NCBI GenBank assembly: GCA_963764625.1
Contig: CAVXTH010000009.1
Coordinates: 1-64,000, forward strand
Length of the DNA stretch: 64,000 nt
Direction of reading: 5' to 3'
Source: Candidatus Krumholzibacteriota bacterium
GTDB lineage: Bacteria > Krumholzibacteriota > Krumholzibacteriia > JAJRXK01
The translations under genes were made by a program, and so were the position numbers. Positions within the stretch are counted from its first letter, which is position 1; each line of letters starts with the position of its first letter. Shown piece after piece: positions 26,506 through 34,936 of the stretch. The notes beneath the pieces are model-generated. The model did no database searches. It was given only the letters and a program-made list of their open reading frames with translations, and had not been told where the DNA came from.

Positions 26506-27288
26506 ATGTTGCGTGCACGAATAAGACGCATTCCGGTTGCGGCGCAGGCGATCGTATTCATGACCATGTTCGCCGCATCGGCGGGCGCGGTCGAGACCCA
26601 CGTCACCGTCAACGTGCTCAGCAAGGACGCCAAGTTCATCGGCTCGAGCATGGGCGGGGCACTGGTCACGATCCGCAACGCCGACACCGGCGAGCTGCTG
26701 ACTTCGGGCCTCACCGAGGGCTCGACCGGCAACACCGGTCTGCTCATCAAGAACGACATCACGCGGCGCACTACGCTCGTCGACGACGGTTCGGCGAAGT
26801 TCCAGGCGACGGTCGACATCGACGCGCCCACGCGAGTGGAGATCTCCGCGCGCGGGCCCATGGCGCAGCGTCAGTCCATTGATGCGGCCTCGGTCACCCA
26901 GTGGCTGCTTCCGGGGAAAGATGTCACTGCCGGTAACGGGGTATTGCTGGAGATCCCGGGCTTCGTGGTGGACGTGCTCTCGCCGCCCACACATCAGAGT
27001 ATTGCTGGGCCAGCCGACGTCACCGTGCGCGTCAATCTCACCATGATGTGAGGTTGCTCCGTGGAGCCCGGGGGGCTCTGGGATTCGGACGCGCTCGAGA
27101 TCACAGCACACGTCATCAAGAACGGCGAACCCATGACCGAAGTCGCGATGAAGTACGCCGGCGCGCCGAGTCAGTTCGAGGCGACGCTTCCGGCCCTCGA
27201 GTCGGGACTGTACGTGGTGACCGTCACCGCCTTCGATCCGCGCAACGGGAACGCGGGGGTGGATACCACGACTTTCATGGTCAGGTAG
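26506..27288 (+). CDS. Exported candidate selenoprotein with MM-U-G-C motif (in-frame TGA at 27049-27051)
   Basis: ORFs 26506-27051 and 27061-27288 share a frame: ATG ATG TGA GGT TGC TCC GTG GAG. Signal peptide (..ASAGA), AAGGAG RBS and a hairpin just 3' of the TGA. Confidence 0.75.
27058..27083 (+). promoter_or_regulatory. Candidate bacterial SECIS hairpin
   Basis: TCC-g-TGGAGCCC-[GGG]-GGGCTCTG-GGA. The G-containing apical loop starts 18 nt after the TGA. Confidence 0.5.
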
Positions 27289-27667
27289 CGGAGCGGGCCT
27301 CAGGGTTCGAAAGTTGACGTTTGTAGTTACTTGAACACCCGGGAGATGAGGTGTAGCAGAGTAAGAAGCCTGCTATTCCTGTCTTGGATTGGTGGCGAAG
27401 CGCGTGAAACGGAAACTCGACGCAGCGACTGAATGTTTCAGTCAGCAAATTTCGTTCCGTGAGCAGAAGCCGTTGCATGGTATGGATTCACGATAGAGCA
27501 AGTCGGTCAGGACGGTTGACTGGAAGCAAGCTTTTTCATTCATGGCTCATGATCTTCGCCGGCCGGGAGTATACTGCCTCACGAATTGGTTTCCCCGCCA
27601 GCGCCACGTTTCAGGACGGTAACTACGGAGAGCCGCCGTCGCCCTTTCGACGTGCAAGGAATTGATC

Positions 27668-30600
27668 ATGAGAAAGATTGGCATCGTTCCGCTATGCCTA
27701 CTCCTCGTTGCTTTCGGCGCAAGCTATGCCTTCGCCGCGGGTCATGAGAGTGGGACCGCGTCCACGAATCACCACGAGATCTTGAAGTATGCGAACAACC
27801 ACGATGGGAGGCAGATCTCTCAGATCTACTCAGGCACAGCGGATGGCTCGAGCAAGGCTGCGACCGACACCTTCTATCTCTACGGAGGTCCTCCCAACTA
27901 CCCAGAAGGGACTTTTGAGGGAAGCGGTAAAGCTCCGGGGGACGTGTACGGTTGGAGTACTATAGATCTAACCAACCCGAGTATGTACTGGCATGGTTCG
28001 ACCATCTACGGTGATGCCAGCTCTAGTCCGGCTGACGAGCTTTTTTCCGATTCCGGAACCGGGCATCCAAACAAGTGTGTCATCTCGCACCACGAAGGCA
28101 GACAATGCAGCCGACTATACCGGATATGGCAACAACTGGGATGACTCAGTTGGTTTTCACTCTCTCAGTTAAAACCCAGCCGACGCTGCAAGCGTGCCGA
28201 GCACCGTTCCGATTCACCACAGAGTACAAGTACGATCTGGAGGCCGGTGCACGACTTCCTGAGCTTTCGACTACAAAACGACCAGTGGATGGAATGCCCC
28301 TCTGCACGTTCAGCGTCGACGACCTCGACTCGTACGACGGAGTATGCAGTACAGGGCTCGGTACTTCGACTCGAGTGATCCCGTGCACAAGGCGGCATCA
28401 TTGGTGGGATCACCTACGCGAACGACAGACTACCTAGGAGCTGGCCACGATGAAATTGTTGTTGCGTATCAGGGTCACTTCCGACAGTAGCTGGTCGGAT
28501 GAAGATGGTCGCCCCTCCGCGGGGCGCGGCGGCGCTTTCATCGACAACATCAATGTGTACCTGAACGGCAACCTGATCAGCAACGCAGACTGGGAGGGCG
28601 CAACGATCGTCGACGAGCCCGAGGGTGACATCAGCGGCCTCAACAATGGTGCTGGGAGCTACAAGGCCGCCGGTGATATTTACGGCTGGGTACCGACCCC
28701 TGCCAGTTTCAATGGAGACTTCTGTAACATCATCTCCTCGTTTGTCGAAGGCGACCTTGATCCGTGCGCGGAGAACAACACGACAATGCTGTCGTTCATC
28801 AACGAGGGGCAAGGAGCGAACAACGATCCCCTCGGGCCTAGCAATGCCTCGGGAGTGCCGCCCGCGGTGGGAAGCACCACCTACGGCATCCCGAGTGGCA
28901 ATGTGTTCGAGTATCAGGGAGGGCTGCTGCCTGCGGGTGAGGGGGGCGTGTACAACAAGTGGATTAGCCCCGCCATCGCAGTGGACCAGGGGTTTGCTGC
29001 CACCAACGGCGGTTTTGCCATGGGCTTTTCCGACTGGACTGACCTTCCGCTCTCGAACTATATCTTCTGGCGCTGGAGCGTCCGCAGTCATGATCCGCTA
29101 GCCGGTGCCTGGACCCCTTGGCGGGATTCCCCGTACCACTACTACGGGGCGTCCCACTCATGGGGTAATCCCGTGATCGACATCATCTGACAAGAGTCAT
29201 AAGTGGTGCGGACTCGTGCAGATCGGCCTCATGGGTCGCGACGCGGCAGTCGCGTTTACCGGGTCGCCCAGCATGGACGCGACCCCTGCGCCGGAGTTCG
29301 ACAACATCTATGTGAAGAGATTCGACATTGGAGGACCCGTAATCACGGTTCCCACCAATGACCTGTTCAACGACGCATTTCCTCCGGATGGTACCTTGAC
29401 CTCCGCAGTGCGCTTCGATCCCGCCGGTAACATCGGGGGCATCGGGATGGCGAATGCTGCTTACTTTCCGACAGGATTCCCTTGCAGTGACCGCAAGAGC
29501 GATCATTCCGGGAACCAGTCTGGTCGATTTTGGCACCATGCACGTAGCTCAATTGGAGAACCCTGCCTTCGGCTCTAGCGTTCGCAGTGCCGGGAAGACG
29601 CTCGTGGGAGCATCCGCGGCAGTTCCAGCGGTGGATGCCGCGCACGCGGGATGGGCGTGTTCGACCTTCGATGTTGCGGGTCAGCAGAGTACCGCGAACA
29701 GCCTACCAGTGGCTGATACCTACTTCTTCGATCTACCCGATGGCCCCGGCTACGGTCTGTACGGGCACGCCGATGAAGATGCGCTCGATTTTCCCAGGGG
29801 ATGTCGTGCACTACTACCTCGAGTTCACTGACGACCAGGTGACTCCGGGTGACAGTCGGACCGTGGCCGACATTAGTGACTTCTTGAATTTCAGTCGCAC
29901 CACTTGGTGGCCGCGCTCGTGGACCATGCGGGCTCTACCCACGATGTTTGATGCAATGACCGGCGAACAACCTCTGGCACTTTGGTGGAATGACTCCGGG
30001 CACCGTGGCCAAGAACAAGAGATGCTTCTGGCCTTCGCGCAGAACGGGATGCTGGAAGGCAGAAACTTCGATACCTACACTACGACAGGCGCGTCTTCAG
30101 GTCTGGGGAATGGTCTGGGTTCTGCGGGTGAGCACGGGGCAACCGCACTCCAGCTCGCCGGTTACGACTGTTTGTTCTACACCTTGGGGAATCTCGCCGA
30201 ACCCGCTCTGAGCAATGGCAACAAGGGAGTCGACGGCAACGACTGGAGCGATGACATCAGCGTAATGACGGATTGGCATAACCAAGATGCTGACCGGTTC
30301 TCGGCCTACTTCGGAGAGAACTTCGCGCAGGCGATGATGAATCAGCAAAACTCGGCGTTTCTCTCGAACATCCTGGGGGTTGACTTCGTCATCGGCGACA
30401 TGAATGCCAGCCACGGTTTGGATGATCAGGTGACTCCCCTGGTAAAGCCGACCGGGCTCAGCTCCCTACTTCGTGACCAATTACAGCCCCTATGGAAATT
30501 GTCCAGGGATCAATGACTGGGACATGCTCGCTCTCTATCGCTGTCACCAATGCCGTGGTGGCTCACGCGTTCACGCAGCCGGACGGCGCGTTCTACCCCA

Positions 30601-31092
30601 CGACGCACCTTGGGAGCATCTACTGGGATCGTCTCGAAAGCAGGCTTTCGGAAAGTGGATATCACGTTCCCGTATGATTTCAGTCTCATCCGCGACGAAT
30701 ACACGAATCCCGAGTCGACGGGTCCAATTACGGCTCGATCCTACCTCTTGGGTGAAATCCTCGCGTCGTTTGGTAAGGTGGGTGGACCGTCGACTGGCGC
30801 CAACAAGCTCCCTCAGAAGCTGGTGGTTAGCCAGAATTACCCGAATCCCTTCAACCCGAGTACGACCATCAAGTATGCGATGCCTCTCCGCGAACAGGTC
30901 AGCATCAAGGTCTACAACTTGCACGGGGCAATGGTCACGACTCTGCTCGACGGTATCCAGGATGCCGGCGATCACAGTGTGATCTGGAACGGTAAGGATA
31001 GACTCGGCTCTACGGTGTCCACCGGTGTTTACCTGTACAAGGTGAGAACCCGGGATTCGGAAGTCGTCAAGAAGATGGCTCTGATCAAGTGA
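27668..31092 (+). CDS. Giant secreted protein with C-terminal FlgD-Ig/CTD-like domain; heavily frameshifted (assembly error or pseudogene)
   Basis: Signal peptide MRKIGIVPLCLLLVAFGASYAFA. Coherent pieces (DTFYLYGG, GYGNNWDD, SDSSWSDEDG, PGDVVHYY, SSGLGNGLG) alternate between frames. Ends NYPNPFNP..TGVYLY..KMALIK. Confidence 0.7.
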
Positions 31093-31195: not shown

Positions 31196-32575
31196 ATGAG
31201 TACGCACCACACTCTCCGCTCAACCTTCCTGTACACGGTGGCATTGCTCGCCGCCTGCGTTTTCGCGCCGGTCAGTAGCTCGGCGGCCTCCTCCAAGGCG
31301 ACCCTCGAGCCACCGGCCGGACCGCTTCCCTTCATCCAGGACGACTACGCCAAGGCTCTGGCTCTCTCGCGTACGCAGAAAGCCCCCTTGTTCGTGGAGT
31401 TCTGGGCTCCGTGGTGACACACCTGTCGCTCCATGAGGGCCTTCGTCTTCACCGACGAATCCCTCGAGCGGCACGCCGGACAGTTCGTCTGGCTCGAGAT
31501 CAACACGGAAAAGGCTGAGAACGCGCCTGTCCTGCAGCAATTCCCGGTGCCAGGGTTACCAACCTACTTCATCGTCGATCCCCGCGACGAAAGCGTACTA
31601 CTGCGCTGGGTGGGCGGGGCCAAGGTGGAACAACTCCACACGATGTTGGACCACGCCCTCGCCTCCTACGAGGGACACCAACCCACCGCACCGGCGGACG
31701 AAGCCCTGGCACGAGCCGACAAGCTCTACGGGGAAGGGAAGAACGCCGAGGCGGCGGTGGCCTATCGCCAGGCGCTGGGCGCCGCGCCGGCCGAGTGGGC
31801 TTCCTACTCCCGCGCGGTGGAGTCGCTCATCTTCGCGCTCTACGCGACCAATCAATACGCGGAGGCCGCCCGGCTCTCGCTCGAGGCCTATCCCGAGGTG
31901 CGCAAGAGCGTCTCGGCGGCCAACGTGGCGGCGATGGGACTCGACTGCGCGATGAGCATGGCGAAGGACGATTCGGCGCGGGCCTGGCTGATCGACTCTC
32001 TCTCCAAGAATGCCGAGCAGGTCGCGGGTGATGCCACGGTTCCGGTGGCGGCCGACGACCGTTCGGCCGTGTTCATCTCTTTGTTGGATGCTCGCGAAGA
32101 CGCTGACGATACGGCGGGAGCCAAAAAGATCGCCCAGCGCTGGGCCACTTTCCTGGAAGGGGAAGCGGCGAAGGCAACCACGCCGGATGCCCGTGCGGTC
32201 TTCGACTCGCATCGCCTGAGTGCCTATCTCGAGTTGGGCGAGCCGGAACGCGCCGTTCCCATGCTGAAGGCCTCCGAGCGCGATCTGCCCGACGACTACA
32301 ATCCGCCCGCGCGCCTGGCCATCGTGTACCAGCGGATGGGGAAGTGGAAAGAAGCGCTCGCGGCATCCGACCGGGCCCTCGCGAAAGCGTATGGCCCACG
32401 GAGGTTGGGATACCTGAGGACACGAGCCTCCATCTACGTCGACATGGGCGACACGGTCAAAGCACGGGCCACCCTGGACGGTGCATTGAAAGAGGCCGAG
32501 GCCCTGCCCGAGGGGCAGCGCTCGGAGCGGCGCATCGAGCAGCTCAAGAAGTCGTTGGCCAAGCTTCAGGACTAG
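31196..32575 (+). CDS. Exported thioredoxin-fold plus TPR-like candidate selenoprotein with UxxC active site (in-frame TGA at 31415-31417)
   Basis: ORFs 31196-31417 and 31433-32575 share a frame: TGG GCT CCG TGG TGA CAC ACC TGT CGC TCC ATG = WAPW-U-HTCRSM. Cis-Pro motif GLPTYF, helical repeat C-terminus and signal peptide. Confidence 0.85.
31424..31473 (+). promoter_or_regulatory. Candidate SECIS-like long hairpin
   Basis: TGTCGCTC-cat-GAGGG-cc-TTCGTC-[TTCACC]-GACGAA-t-CCCTC-GAGCGGCA, beginning 6 nt after the TGA. Confidence 0.55.
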
Positions 32576-32661: not shown

Positions 32662-33483
32662 ATGGCGGATCGACACGCGGGCGCTGGCAGTGATGCCGGC
32701 CTCATCATGGCCTATGAGGACAGTGCGGACCGGGTGCCCGTCCTCTGGATCCACGGCTACCCTCTCAACAGCACGATGTGGGATATCCAGATAACCGATC
32801 TGGCCGACGTGGCGCGCTCGATCGCCCCCGACCTGAGGGGACACGGCATGACCGAGCCCACGTCGACGACGCCCTACACCATGGGCTTGTTGGCGGACGA
32901 TTGCCTTCGCCTGCTAGACCACTTGGATGCCGACGGTCCAGTAGTCGTGGCCGGGCTGTCGATGGGCGGCTACGTGGCCCTGGAACTCTGCCGCCGCGCA
33001 CCCGAGCGCGTCTTGGGGCTCATTCTGGCTTCCACCAAGGCGACGCCCGATTCGGATGCAGCGAAGAAGGCACGGGATGAGTCCGCGCGCGTCGCTGCCA
33101 CCGAAGGCATCGAAGCAATCGTCGAGGGTCTCTTGCCGAAGCTGATGGCTCCTCGAACCTATAAGAAGGATCACGAACTCGTAGAGTTCGTGAGGGGAAT
33201 CATGCTGGACACCACGCCCGAGGGAATGGTCGGAGCGTTGGCGGCCATGCGCGACCGTCCCGATTCCACTCCCGACCTGTCCGACCTGGCGATGCCTGCC
33301 CTTGTCATCCACGGCGAAGACGATCAGTTGATTCCCACCTCCGAGGCGAAAGCCATGGTACTCGCTCTCCCCACCGCGGAACTCGTTCTGGTTCCCGATG
33401 CCGGGCATATGGTGAACCTCGAGCAACCGGAGGTCTTCGATGAGGCGGTGCGCGACTTCCTCGAGTCGTTCTACGAGGAGTGA
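32662..33483 (+). CDS. Alpha/beta hydrolase (enol-lactonase/esterase-like)
   Basis: IHGYP, PDLRGHG, GLSMGG nucleophile elbow, GEDD and AGHMVNLEQP. Confidence 0.9.
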   Translation: MADRHAGAGSDAGLIMAYEDSADRVPVLWIHGYPLNSTMWDIQITDLADVARSIAPDLRGHGMTEPTSTTPYTMGLLADDCLRLLDHLDADGPVVVAGLSMGGYVALELCRRAPERVLGLILASTKATPDSDAAKKARDESARVAATEGIEAIVEGLLPKLMAPRTYKKDHELVEFVRGIMLDTTPEGMVGALAAMRDRPDSTPDLSDLAMPALVIHGEDDQLIPTSEAKAMVLALPTAELVLVPDAGHMVNLEQPEVFDEAVRDFLESFYEE

Positions 33484-33525
33484 GTTTCTTGGGTGAGGGT
33501 CCATCGAGGAATGGAGCGAGGTGAC

Positions 33526-34936
33526 ATGGGTGAAAAGGTGACAGGAGATCTCGATGCGACCCTGCAGGCGGCCCGCGATCTCCTGCAGGATGCGGTAGTG
33601 ACGTACCGGGGTCGTCCGGTGGGGACGAAGGCAGCGTGCAATCCACGCTTCGAGGCCGCGTTCAATTACAGCGAGTGCTTCGTTCGGGACTTCGTCTCCG
33701 TCGCGCTGGTGTACTTGGCTGACGGCAAGCCGGAGATCGTCCGCAACTTCCTTCAGGCTGTCAACGAGGTGTGCTCGCGGGGCGAACGGATGACGGGACA
33801 GGACCTTCACCCCGGCGTGATGCTGGCGAGCTTCCGCGTGGAAAATGAGGACGGAGAAGAACGCCTCAGGGCCGACTTCGGAAATCGTGCCATCGGTCGC
33901 GTAGCTCCGGTCGATTCGATGATGTGGTGGGCGATTCTCCTGCTGATCTATGAGCGTGCCACCGGCGACACCGGCCTGGCCAAGACGACCTGAGTTTCAA
34001 CGACGGCTCGAACTCAGCCTCGACTTGTGTCTGAAGGCATCCTTCGAGGTCTTCCCCACTTTGCTCGTTCCTGATGGATGCTGCATGATCGATCGCCGGA
34101 TGGGCGTCTACGGACATCCCCTGGAGATCCAGGCCCTGTTCGGCGCGCTTCTGGACGTCGGACTCGCGCTACTGGTGCCGACCGACAGCAACCAGTCGCT
34201 CCTGGAACGCGCGGCGCAGCGACAGAAGGTGTTGAAGTCGTACGTCCGGGAGTGGTACTGGCTGGATCGGTCGCGCTTGACGGAAATCCGCCGCTTCAAA
34301 ACCGAGGAGTTTGGTTCCACGAGCGTCAACGCACTGAACATCCATCCGGATTCCATGCCCGAGTGGGTGTCCGATTGGCTGCCCGAAGAATGCGGCTTCA
34401 TGGTCGGCAATCTGGGACCCGGACGCATCGACTTCCGGTTCTTTGCCCTGGGTAATCTGCTGGCAGTGTTGTTCGCTTTGGCGAAAGACGATCATGCCAC
34501 GAATCTGTTTCGGCTCTACGACCAACGCTGGGAGGATCTCGTGGGCGACGCGCCGCTGCGGATCACCTATCCGGCGGTCGAAGACGACGAGTGGCGCGTG
34601 CTGACCGGGAGCGATCCCAAGAACACGCCGTGGAGCTATCACAACGGAGGCAGCTGGCCGGTACTTCTGTGGCCCTTCGTGGCCGCGGCTCTCCGTGCGG
34701 GCCGTCGCGATCTGGCGCAGCGCGCCTTCGATCAGGTCGCCGCGCGCTGCGCATCCGAAGACTGGCCCGAGTACTACGACGGGCATCGGGGGCGCCTCGT
34801 CGGTCGCTACGCCAACCTACGCCAGGTGTGGACAGCCTCGGGCCTGCTCGCCAGCCATCAATTGCTCCACCGTCCCGAAATCTTGGACTGGCTGCAGGTG
34901 CATACCGCGGCGCGCCGGGGCTCCGATAAGACCTAA
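33526..34936 (+). CDS. GH100 alkaline/neutral invertase; one frameshift near 33985
   Basis: NYSECFVRDF and ADFGNRAIGRVAPVDSMMWW in one frame; DGCCMIDRRMGVYGHPLEIQALF, GSDPKNTPWSYHNGGSWP and WPEYYDG in the +1 frame. Confidence 0.9.

Follow-up and report, generated by a model that had tools for sequence, protein, structure and literature searches.

A probable thioredoxin-fold selenoprotein with a tetratricopeptide-like repeat domain in a Krumholzibacteriota genome, and a candidate two-hairpin signal for recoding its UGA codon

A 64,000-nucleotide stretch of DNA from a Candidatus Krumholzibacteriota bacterium (assembly GCA_963764625.1, contig CAVXTH010000009.1, positions 1 to 64,000 of the forward strand; hereafter the window) contains a gene that is, with high probability, a genuine selenoprotein gene in which TGA 31415..31417 specifies selenocysteine (Sec), and which has been mis-annotated in public databases. 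The complete gene occupies 31196..32575 on the + strand and consists of 459 codons and a TAG stop; alignments with homologs extend over as much as 99% of it. Its product combines a thioredoxin domain with a tetratricopeptide repeat (TPR)-like domain and is called the Trx-TPR protein below. The TGA encodes residue 74, the attacking position of a UxxC motif, and this assignment comes from a comparison of TGA, TGC and TGT at the corresponding column of homologs. Two RNA hairpins immediately downstream of the TGA are candidates for the recoding signal.

In the genomic sequence, the gene appears as two open reading frames (ORFs), 31196-31417 with 73 codons and 31433-32575 with 380 codons, which share one frame and are separated only by the TGA. 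The second ORF begins with the ATG at 31433, the sixth codon past the TGA. The original prediction, made from the letters of the window, had joined the two ORFs into one Sec oxidoreductase that gene callers split. The ORF translation gives the same frame and, when read through, a product of 459 residues that includes FWAPW-U-HTCRSM. The letters of the TGA are the same in other assemblies: Logan contigs of three public sequencing runs (X1, X2 and X4), one of which may be the source sample of the window, cover 31415-31417 with zero differing letters, and those of a fourth run (X3) leave it uncovered.

The TGA has been retained over a wide range of sequence divergence. All 12 orthologs at 51-100% identity have TGA at this exact column, with the coding sequence conserved on both sides of it, and TGA is kept even in members at 32-38% identity. 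In the window's own phylum, the gene is present in seven of the 208 genomes searched, and the codon is TGA in all seven. The distribution is patchy, and the gene was not found in four other genomes of the window's genus. In a second phylum, the Acidobacteriota, matches occur in 25 of the 401 sampled genomes; 19 of the 21 rows covering the column have TGA and two do not, one unpublished genome being left out. The genomes of both phyla were pooled with 80 metagenome loci to give 113 loci, of which 105 cover the column of residue 74 and carry TGA (85), TGC (16) or TGT (4). These shares are not frequencies, because Cys forms were all that one of the two metagenome search patterns could match, and of 594 metagenome matches the best 80 alone were kept. 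As a pattern in aligned sequences, the alternation of TGA with cysteine codons is the usual mark of a selenoprotein in comparative analysis, and it suggests that selenium itself would be inserted at residue 74.

The protein databases carry the imprint of the same codon. The 120 best-matching database proteins include 70 of full length, every one of which has W-C-H-[TSA]-C at the corresponding place. The other 50 are shorter, and 47 of these start at the Met six codons past the TGA column, which indicates that their gene calls have been truncated by the TGA, as had been foreseen. The remaining three are two fragments of 310 residues and one N-terminally cut Cys form. A FastTree phylogeny built from 83 Sec and 18 Cys read-through proteins, 101 distinct sequences in all, requires at least nine switches between the two states, at least five of them forced by well-supported branches. 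The Cys forms are scattered within this TGA-dominated tree, for which the root and the direction of change are not established.

The genome, which comprises 3.57 Mb in nine contigs and is estimated to be 96% complete, possesses the Sec machinery for which the original prediction had suggested a search. In a genome profile search, selA (454 bits), selB (355 bits) and selD (358 bits) pass their curated cut-offs, as does a tRNA-Sec with the anticodon tca (73.3 bits). The selD gene of this genome (G000), situated outside the window at C1:137604, has an in-frame TGA of its own (...AAG-U-AAK...), presumably at the usual Sec position of SelD. It is followed by the hairpin GCCCGGA-GGA-UCUGGGC, with the loop 20 nucleotides (nt) past the UGA. 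TGA is also the commonest stop codon of the genome, ending 1103 of the 1776 open frames of at least 400 codons, so the code is not reassigned.

Two hairpins follow the TGA within the coding sequence. Hairpin 1 (31424..31473) has three segments, begins 6 nt past the TGA and exposes the apical loop UUCACC at 31448-31453. Hairpin 2 (31475..31493) has the sequence GCCGGAC-AGUUC-GUCUGGC and consists of a stem of seven base pairs (bp) and a 5-nt loop at 31482-31486.

Hairpin 1 had been described in the original prediction, and it folds as described. The minimum free energy (MFE) of the 69-nt segment containing it is -31.4 kcal/mol versus -20.4 +/- 3.2 kcal/mol for shuffled sequences (z = -3.48), and only one of 200 dinucleotide shuffles folds as well. 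The hairpin is present in all 12 orthologs first examined. The 63 nt past the codon have a mean MFE of -30.8 +/- 3.0 kcal/mol in the 85 TGA forms versus -21.0 +/- 5.8 kcal/mol in 20 Cys forms, at a GC content of 0.68 and 0.69, respectively; as the sequences are related, the p-value exaggerates this difference. A three-stem structure was evaluated in 75 distinct TGA-type sequences, from which loci L034 and L066 were excluded due to a one-codon deletion. Its hairpin 1 cells are paired in 84.1% of cases, versus 33-46% when the partners are slid by one to three columns; in 19 Cys forms, the pairing of this structure amounts to 68%. None of 500 shuffles, which give 0.099 +/- 0.006, reaches the observed covariation score of 0.137. 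Compensatory changes occur at three pairs, for example at columns 9-60, where G-C is found 31 times and C-G 16 times. The two most divergent members have one codon fewer near hairpin 1 and other amino acids there, and they keep the hairpin with a different sequence.

Hairpin 2 is conserved in another manner. All seven pairs are formed in 76 of 77 distinct TGA-type segments versus three of 18 Cys forms, and the sole TGA-type exception, locus L138, is wholly divergent from that point on. Of the 77 TGA forms, 68 have GGUUC or AGUUC as the loop. The mean MFE is -12.7 kcal/mol in the TGA forms and -6.7 kcal/mol in the Cys forms. In an alignment of 87 columns, the helix is 99.2% paired and near-invariant, and it is unchanged in the two most divergent members. 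In the TGA forms, the synonymous sites of codons +20 to +25 are frozen, and Ala is GCC and Val is GTC in 100% of cases; the corresponding values in the Cys forms are 50% and 47%. The Gly codon inside hairpin 2 is GGA or GGG in 76 of 77 segments and never GGC, the leading Gly codon elsewhere in the gene. A Val-to-Ala change within the hairpin (GUC to GCC) is accompanied by a change of GGA to GGG.

Some of the Cys-type loci L049, L072, L076, L084 and L085 still fold hairpin 1, hairpin 2 or both well. Such loci would fit recent changes from TGA to TGC, with an RNA signal that is still to decay, if change did run in that direction.

The selD genes of carrier genomes provide a comparison with known signals of this kind. 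One in-frame TGA is present in each selD of five other carriers. In two of them (G208 and G566), the selenocysteine insertion sequence (SECIS) of selD is GGUC-AGUUC-GACC with the loop 16 nt past the UGA, and its loop and closing pair are the same as those of hairpin 2; as both genomes belong to one phylum, they amount to about one independent observation. Among the six selD genes examined, those of G000, G005 and G209 have the loop GGA or AGGAU, and that of G021 is unclear. A whole-genome motif search for hairpins like that of selD downstream of in-frame TGAs returned 352 matches and was abandoned as far too permissive.

A 2026 review gives a model of the bacterial SECIS with a loop of 3-9 nt, a G in the first two loop positions that is usually followed by G or U, a distance of 16-37 nt from UGA to loop and an MFE of -7.5 or lower; it adds that a subset of bacterial elements falls outside this consensus (PMC13188914). 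For E. coli, a second source describes a minimal hairpin 11 nt from the UGA, in which the loop bases G23 and U24 are required (PMC8659212). Compared with the model, hairpin 1 obeys the spacing rule and fails only the rule for G, and hairpin 2 obeys the rules for loop, stem and energy and fails only that for spacing. A search of Rfam at E <= 10 over 31300-31600 returned no SECIS family and only two chance snoRNA-like matches. The original prediction had proposed hairpin 1 as a lineage-specific SECIS, having seen that UUCACC lacks the usual G. The conserved hairpin and the G-less loop were both found, but a loop with the G and U that SelB would be expected to bind belongs to the hairpin at 31475-31493, and this part of the prediction is amended accordingly. 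Its main inference is upheld, since none of the three refuting results it had named was obtained: the contigs of other runs do not show a Cys codon, the sel genes are not missing, and related genomes do keep TGA between conserved coding sequences.

By combining these observations, it is possible to propose how the codon might be read. The UGA at 31415-31417 would be recoded by the host's own SelB and tRNA-Sec, directed by a two-part signal in the coding sequence just downstream. Hairpin 1, which appears to be conserved in structure and free to change in sequence, would serve as a spacer, folding the intervening RNA away and shortening the effective distance between the UGA and hairpin 2. Hairpin 2, being sequence-invariant and having in its AGUUC or GGUUC loop the G-U expected of a SelB-binding loop, would then be the site where SelB is bound. 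We hold with moderate confidence, from the comparative data, that SelB binds hairpin 2 and that hairpin 1 acts as a structural spacer, the two together forming the SECIS. If true, the two-hairpin signal would represent a distinct class of bacterial SECIS with its loop at about twice the accepted maximum distance. The failure of SECIS-based gene finders and curated models to detect a selenoprotein family common among bacteria of soil and sediment would then be accounted for as well.

A number of observations weigh against these interpretations. The loop of hairpin 2 starts 64 nt past the UGA, and the range of the model is 16-37 nt. As there is hardly any variation in hairpin 2, its case is one of conservation and not of covariation. 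The amino acids at hairpin 2 are changed in 13 of 18 Cys forms, and hairpin 2 is still formed in three of the five Cys forms that keep AG[QR]FVWL; a part of the contrast between Sec and Cys forms is therefore due to amino-acid divergence. The stem arms that hairpin 2 shares with selD of the same genome carry little weight and were not counted, because a narrower core motif has 438 occurrences genome-wide. Hairpin 1, for its part, lacks a G at the first two positions of its loop. RNAalifold found no usable consensus for hairpin 1 in 75 TGA-type segments, recovering five outer pairs only, so the explicit three-stem structure from single folds was tested instead; as that structure was derived from the same sequences, the pairing test was favoured. 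The loci are related to one another, and the statistics overstate their independence. Finally, the possibility that Cys forms belong to genomes without Sec machinery was considered and ruled out: selA is present in both Cys-form genomes tested (G305 and G598) as well as in three of three TGA-form genomes, and the Cys forms are thus not explained by loss of the machinery.

The alternative that best withstands the evidence retains the selenoprotein and takes hairpin 1 alone as the SECIS, its G-less loop being read by a lineage-specific SelB and hairpin 2 being accessory or conserved for some other reason. The distance from the UGA to the loop of hairpin 1 is 30 nt, within the published 16-37 nt, and the greater stability of hairpin 1 in TGA than in Cys forms and its compensatory changes are as expected from this alternative. 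However, the loop is encoded by a conserved F-T, similar loop sequences also occur in Cys forms, and it is unlike every selD SECIS loop among the six examined. Nor does the distribution call for a lineage-specific SelB, as carriers from two phyla have the same hairpin 2, and it is hairpin 2 that is sequence-invariant, as a protein-binding site would be. We consider this alternative unlikely.

It is very improbable that the TGA is read as Cys or Trp, by near-cognate decoding or in a reassigned code, with no selenium involved. Nothing specific speaks for it. TGA terminates most of the long open frames of the genome, the Sec machinery is complete and selD itself has an in-frame TGA, and the downstream hairpins are associated with TGA at this codon. 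The least credible alternative is that the TGA is a true stop in a split or decaying gene, leaving a peptide of 73 residues and perhaps a separate TPR protein from ATG 31433: all the public annotation seen agrees with it, including the 47 truncated proteins that start from that Met (some are named 'tetratricopeptide repeat protein'), and TGA is the genome's commonest stop, but such a stop would sever the thioredoxin fold within the active site, the downstream product would have no export signal, coding sequence is conserved on both sides at 85 loci in at least two phyla with Cys in others, and a pseudogene would not retain the TGA and two hairpins for so long.

With Sec at residue 74, the protein has the domain layout that had been read from its letters, on which Pfam, the invariance of P122 and an AlphaFold2 model agree. 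The thioredoxin-fold domain (residues 46-158, 31331..31669) carries the W-U-H-T-C motif. Pfam Thioredoxin_7 (PF13899) spans the TGA, matching residues 48-129 with 45.2 bits versus a cut-off of 27, and Thioredoxin (PF00085) and Thioredoxin_2 (PF13098) likewise score above their cut-offs. W73, position 74 (C or U), H75, C77 and P122 are invariant in 71 aligned sequences. C77, encoded by TGT at 31424..31426, is the resolving Cys of the UxxC motif, and P122 (31559-31561) of the GLPT motif would adopt the cis conformation. A profile search of the PDB gives 2kuc_A (8.7e-18) and DsbD C-terminal domains (5.7e-11) as the closest solved relatives of the thioredoxin domain. The AlphaFold2 model has a mean predicted local distance difference test score (pLDDT) of 91.7 and a predicted template modelling score (pTM) of 0.87. 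In this model, residues 46-158 form a beta-alpha thioredoxin fold, residues 166-458 contain 17 helices, and residues 1-35 are disordered (pLDDT <50). The C-terminal domain (residues 166-459, 31691..32572) is thus an all-helical TPR-like repeat domain in the model; it also matches Pfam TPR_19 (36.1 bits versus a cut-off of 25), and Foldseek relates it to TPR superhelices (LGN 6hc2, E 3.4e-6, template modelling (TM) score by target 0.53-0.57).

Residues 1-35 (31196..31300) are predicted to be an export signal, having a hydrophobic stretch and a lipobox-like LAAC. By a heuristic that requires a 12-mer with a mean Kyte-Doolittle value >1.6, applied in place of SignalP, a hydrophobic 12-mer lies within the first 60 residues of 68 of the 71 full-length members of the family. 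A lipobox-like motif is present in only three of the 71, the window's protein among them. Judged from these features, the Trx-TPR protein would be an exported thiol-disulfide oxidoreductase with Sec as the attacking residue. The TPR-like domain probably holds client proteins or partners. In terms of architecture, the protein may represent a periplasmic counterpart of the chaperedoxins. The neighborhood offers no hint of a pathway: across 32 loci, no ORF family occurs in more than three, there is no conserved neighbor gene, and hence there is no operon clue.

An alpha/beta hydrolase gene (Abhydrolase_6, E 1.3e-27) lies directly downstream at 32665-33483 (+); it is not conserved beside the Trx-TPR gene elsewhere. 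Upstream, the region 26506-27285 (+), with TGA at 27049-27051, looks like a second selenoprotein gene. It would encode an exported protein of 260 residues with TMM-U-G-C and no Pfam match, and is present in nine of the 208 genomes of the window's phylum, with TGA in G000 and G205 and Cys (C-x-C) in six others. The GC-rich hairpin region GAGCCCGGGGGGCUCUGGGAU lies about 15 nt past this TGA and is identical in G205; shuffled versions of it fold at least as well (z 0.52). From about 27662 to 31092 (+), long ORFs follow one another in shifting frames (28450-29190, 29216-29578, 29587-30516 and 30550-31092), and the run ends in a Por_Secre_tail / FlgD_ig C-terminal sorting domain. This looks like the gene of one large type-IX-secreted protein, broken by frameshifts or assembly errors. 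A homolog of the GH100 'alkaline and neutral invertase' occupies 33493-34936 (+). Its Pfam match (E 4.7e-128) extends over profile positions 136-435 only and lies in the ORF 33950-34936, which is overlapped by the preceding ORF 33493-33993, read in another frame. A frameshift or an assembly error may have disrupted this gene.

The UxxC thioredoxin-fold proteins are the commonest type of selenoprotein. As far as could be searched, the Trx-TPR protein is an uncatalogued member of this well-known group, and the result is unsurprising in kind. One database search returned 3469 homologs at E <= 0.001. A widespread uncatalogued family, with carriers in at least two phyla, would therefore join the thioredoxin-fold selenoproteins. 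As its TGA-type members are truncated, and some are labelled only 'tetratricopeptide repeat protein', selenoproteome counts for soil and sediment lineages are too low. A full-text search of the literature found no description of a Trx-TPR selenoprotein family. The family is likewise absent from the main texts of deep-Sep and BSepDB, whose supplementary family lists may still include it.

The 2026 inventory, in the part of it that was available, lists UxxC selenoproteins among Trx (PF00085) and the thiol:disulfide interchange protein (PF13098), and the terms 'TPR', 'tetratricopeptide', 'PF13899' and 'DUF255' have no occurrences in that text (PMC13188914). The Trx-TPR protein resembles these proteins, as described there, in having Sec in place of the attacking Cys of CxxC, in having many Cys homologs and in passing the cut-offs of PF00085 and PF13098. 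It differs from them in that its best Pfam match is Thioredoxin_7 and in having a TPR-like fusion of about 300 residues and an export signal, a distinction drawn from the inventory text.

The protein passes no model of NCBIfam release 20.0; the best is DsbD NF001419, with 38.5 versus 330 bits. The families Trx7/PDZ (NF041199), VPGUxxT type 2 (NF041383) and TsoB (NF045694) are also thioredoxin-like, with a domain of the Thioredoxin_7 or DsbD type, but the Trx-TPR protein is not a member, scoring 19.7, 20.2 and 31.5 against cut-offs of 300, 275 and 805. The motif of Trx7/PDZ is moreover CxxU, in contrast to UxxC. The DsbD gamma domain and 2kuc_A, a 'putative disulphide-isomerase', are the nearest solved structures to its thioredoxin domain, and both are periplasmic thiol-disulfide oxidoreductase domains. 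Unlike DsbD, the Trx-TPR protein has no DsbD membrane domain, the match to NF001419 being confined to the gamma-domain region, and has Sec and TPR.

The chaperedoxin YbbN/CnoX (3qou, 3qdn) has the same order of domains, thioredoxin and then TPR, and Foldseek aligns it over 319-339 columns (E 1.5e-5 to 4.1e-5). Some members of the Trx-TPR family carry the JGI label 'thioredoxin-like negative regulator of GroEL'. However, the global superposition is poor (TM 0.20-0.32, root-mean-square deviation 22-23 Å), the TPR part of the Trx-TPR protein is longer, and the resemblance of the whole proteins is one of domain order. YbbN is cytoplasmic, whereas 68 of the 71 family members have, according to the heuristic, an N-terminus resembling a signal peptide.

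The candidate signal provides a natural test case of how far from the UGA a SelB-binding hairpin may sit, a distance that matters for the prediction of selenoprotein genes and for the design of recombinant selenoproteins. Compared with the SECIS of the E. coli fdhF type and the bSECISearch consensus (PMC13188914, PMC8659212), hairpin 2 is similar in having a 7-bp stem and a 5-nt loop with G-U at loop positions 2-3, and in lying within the coding sequence 3' of the UGA. It differs in the position of its loop, 64 nt from the UGA, and in that the gap is filled by a conserved 50-nt hairpin.

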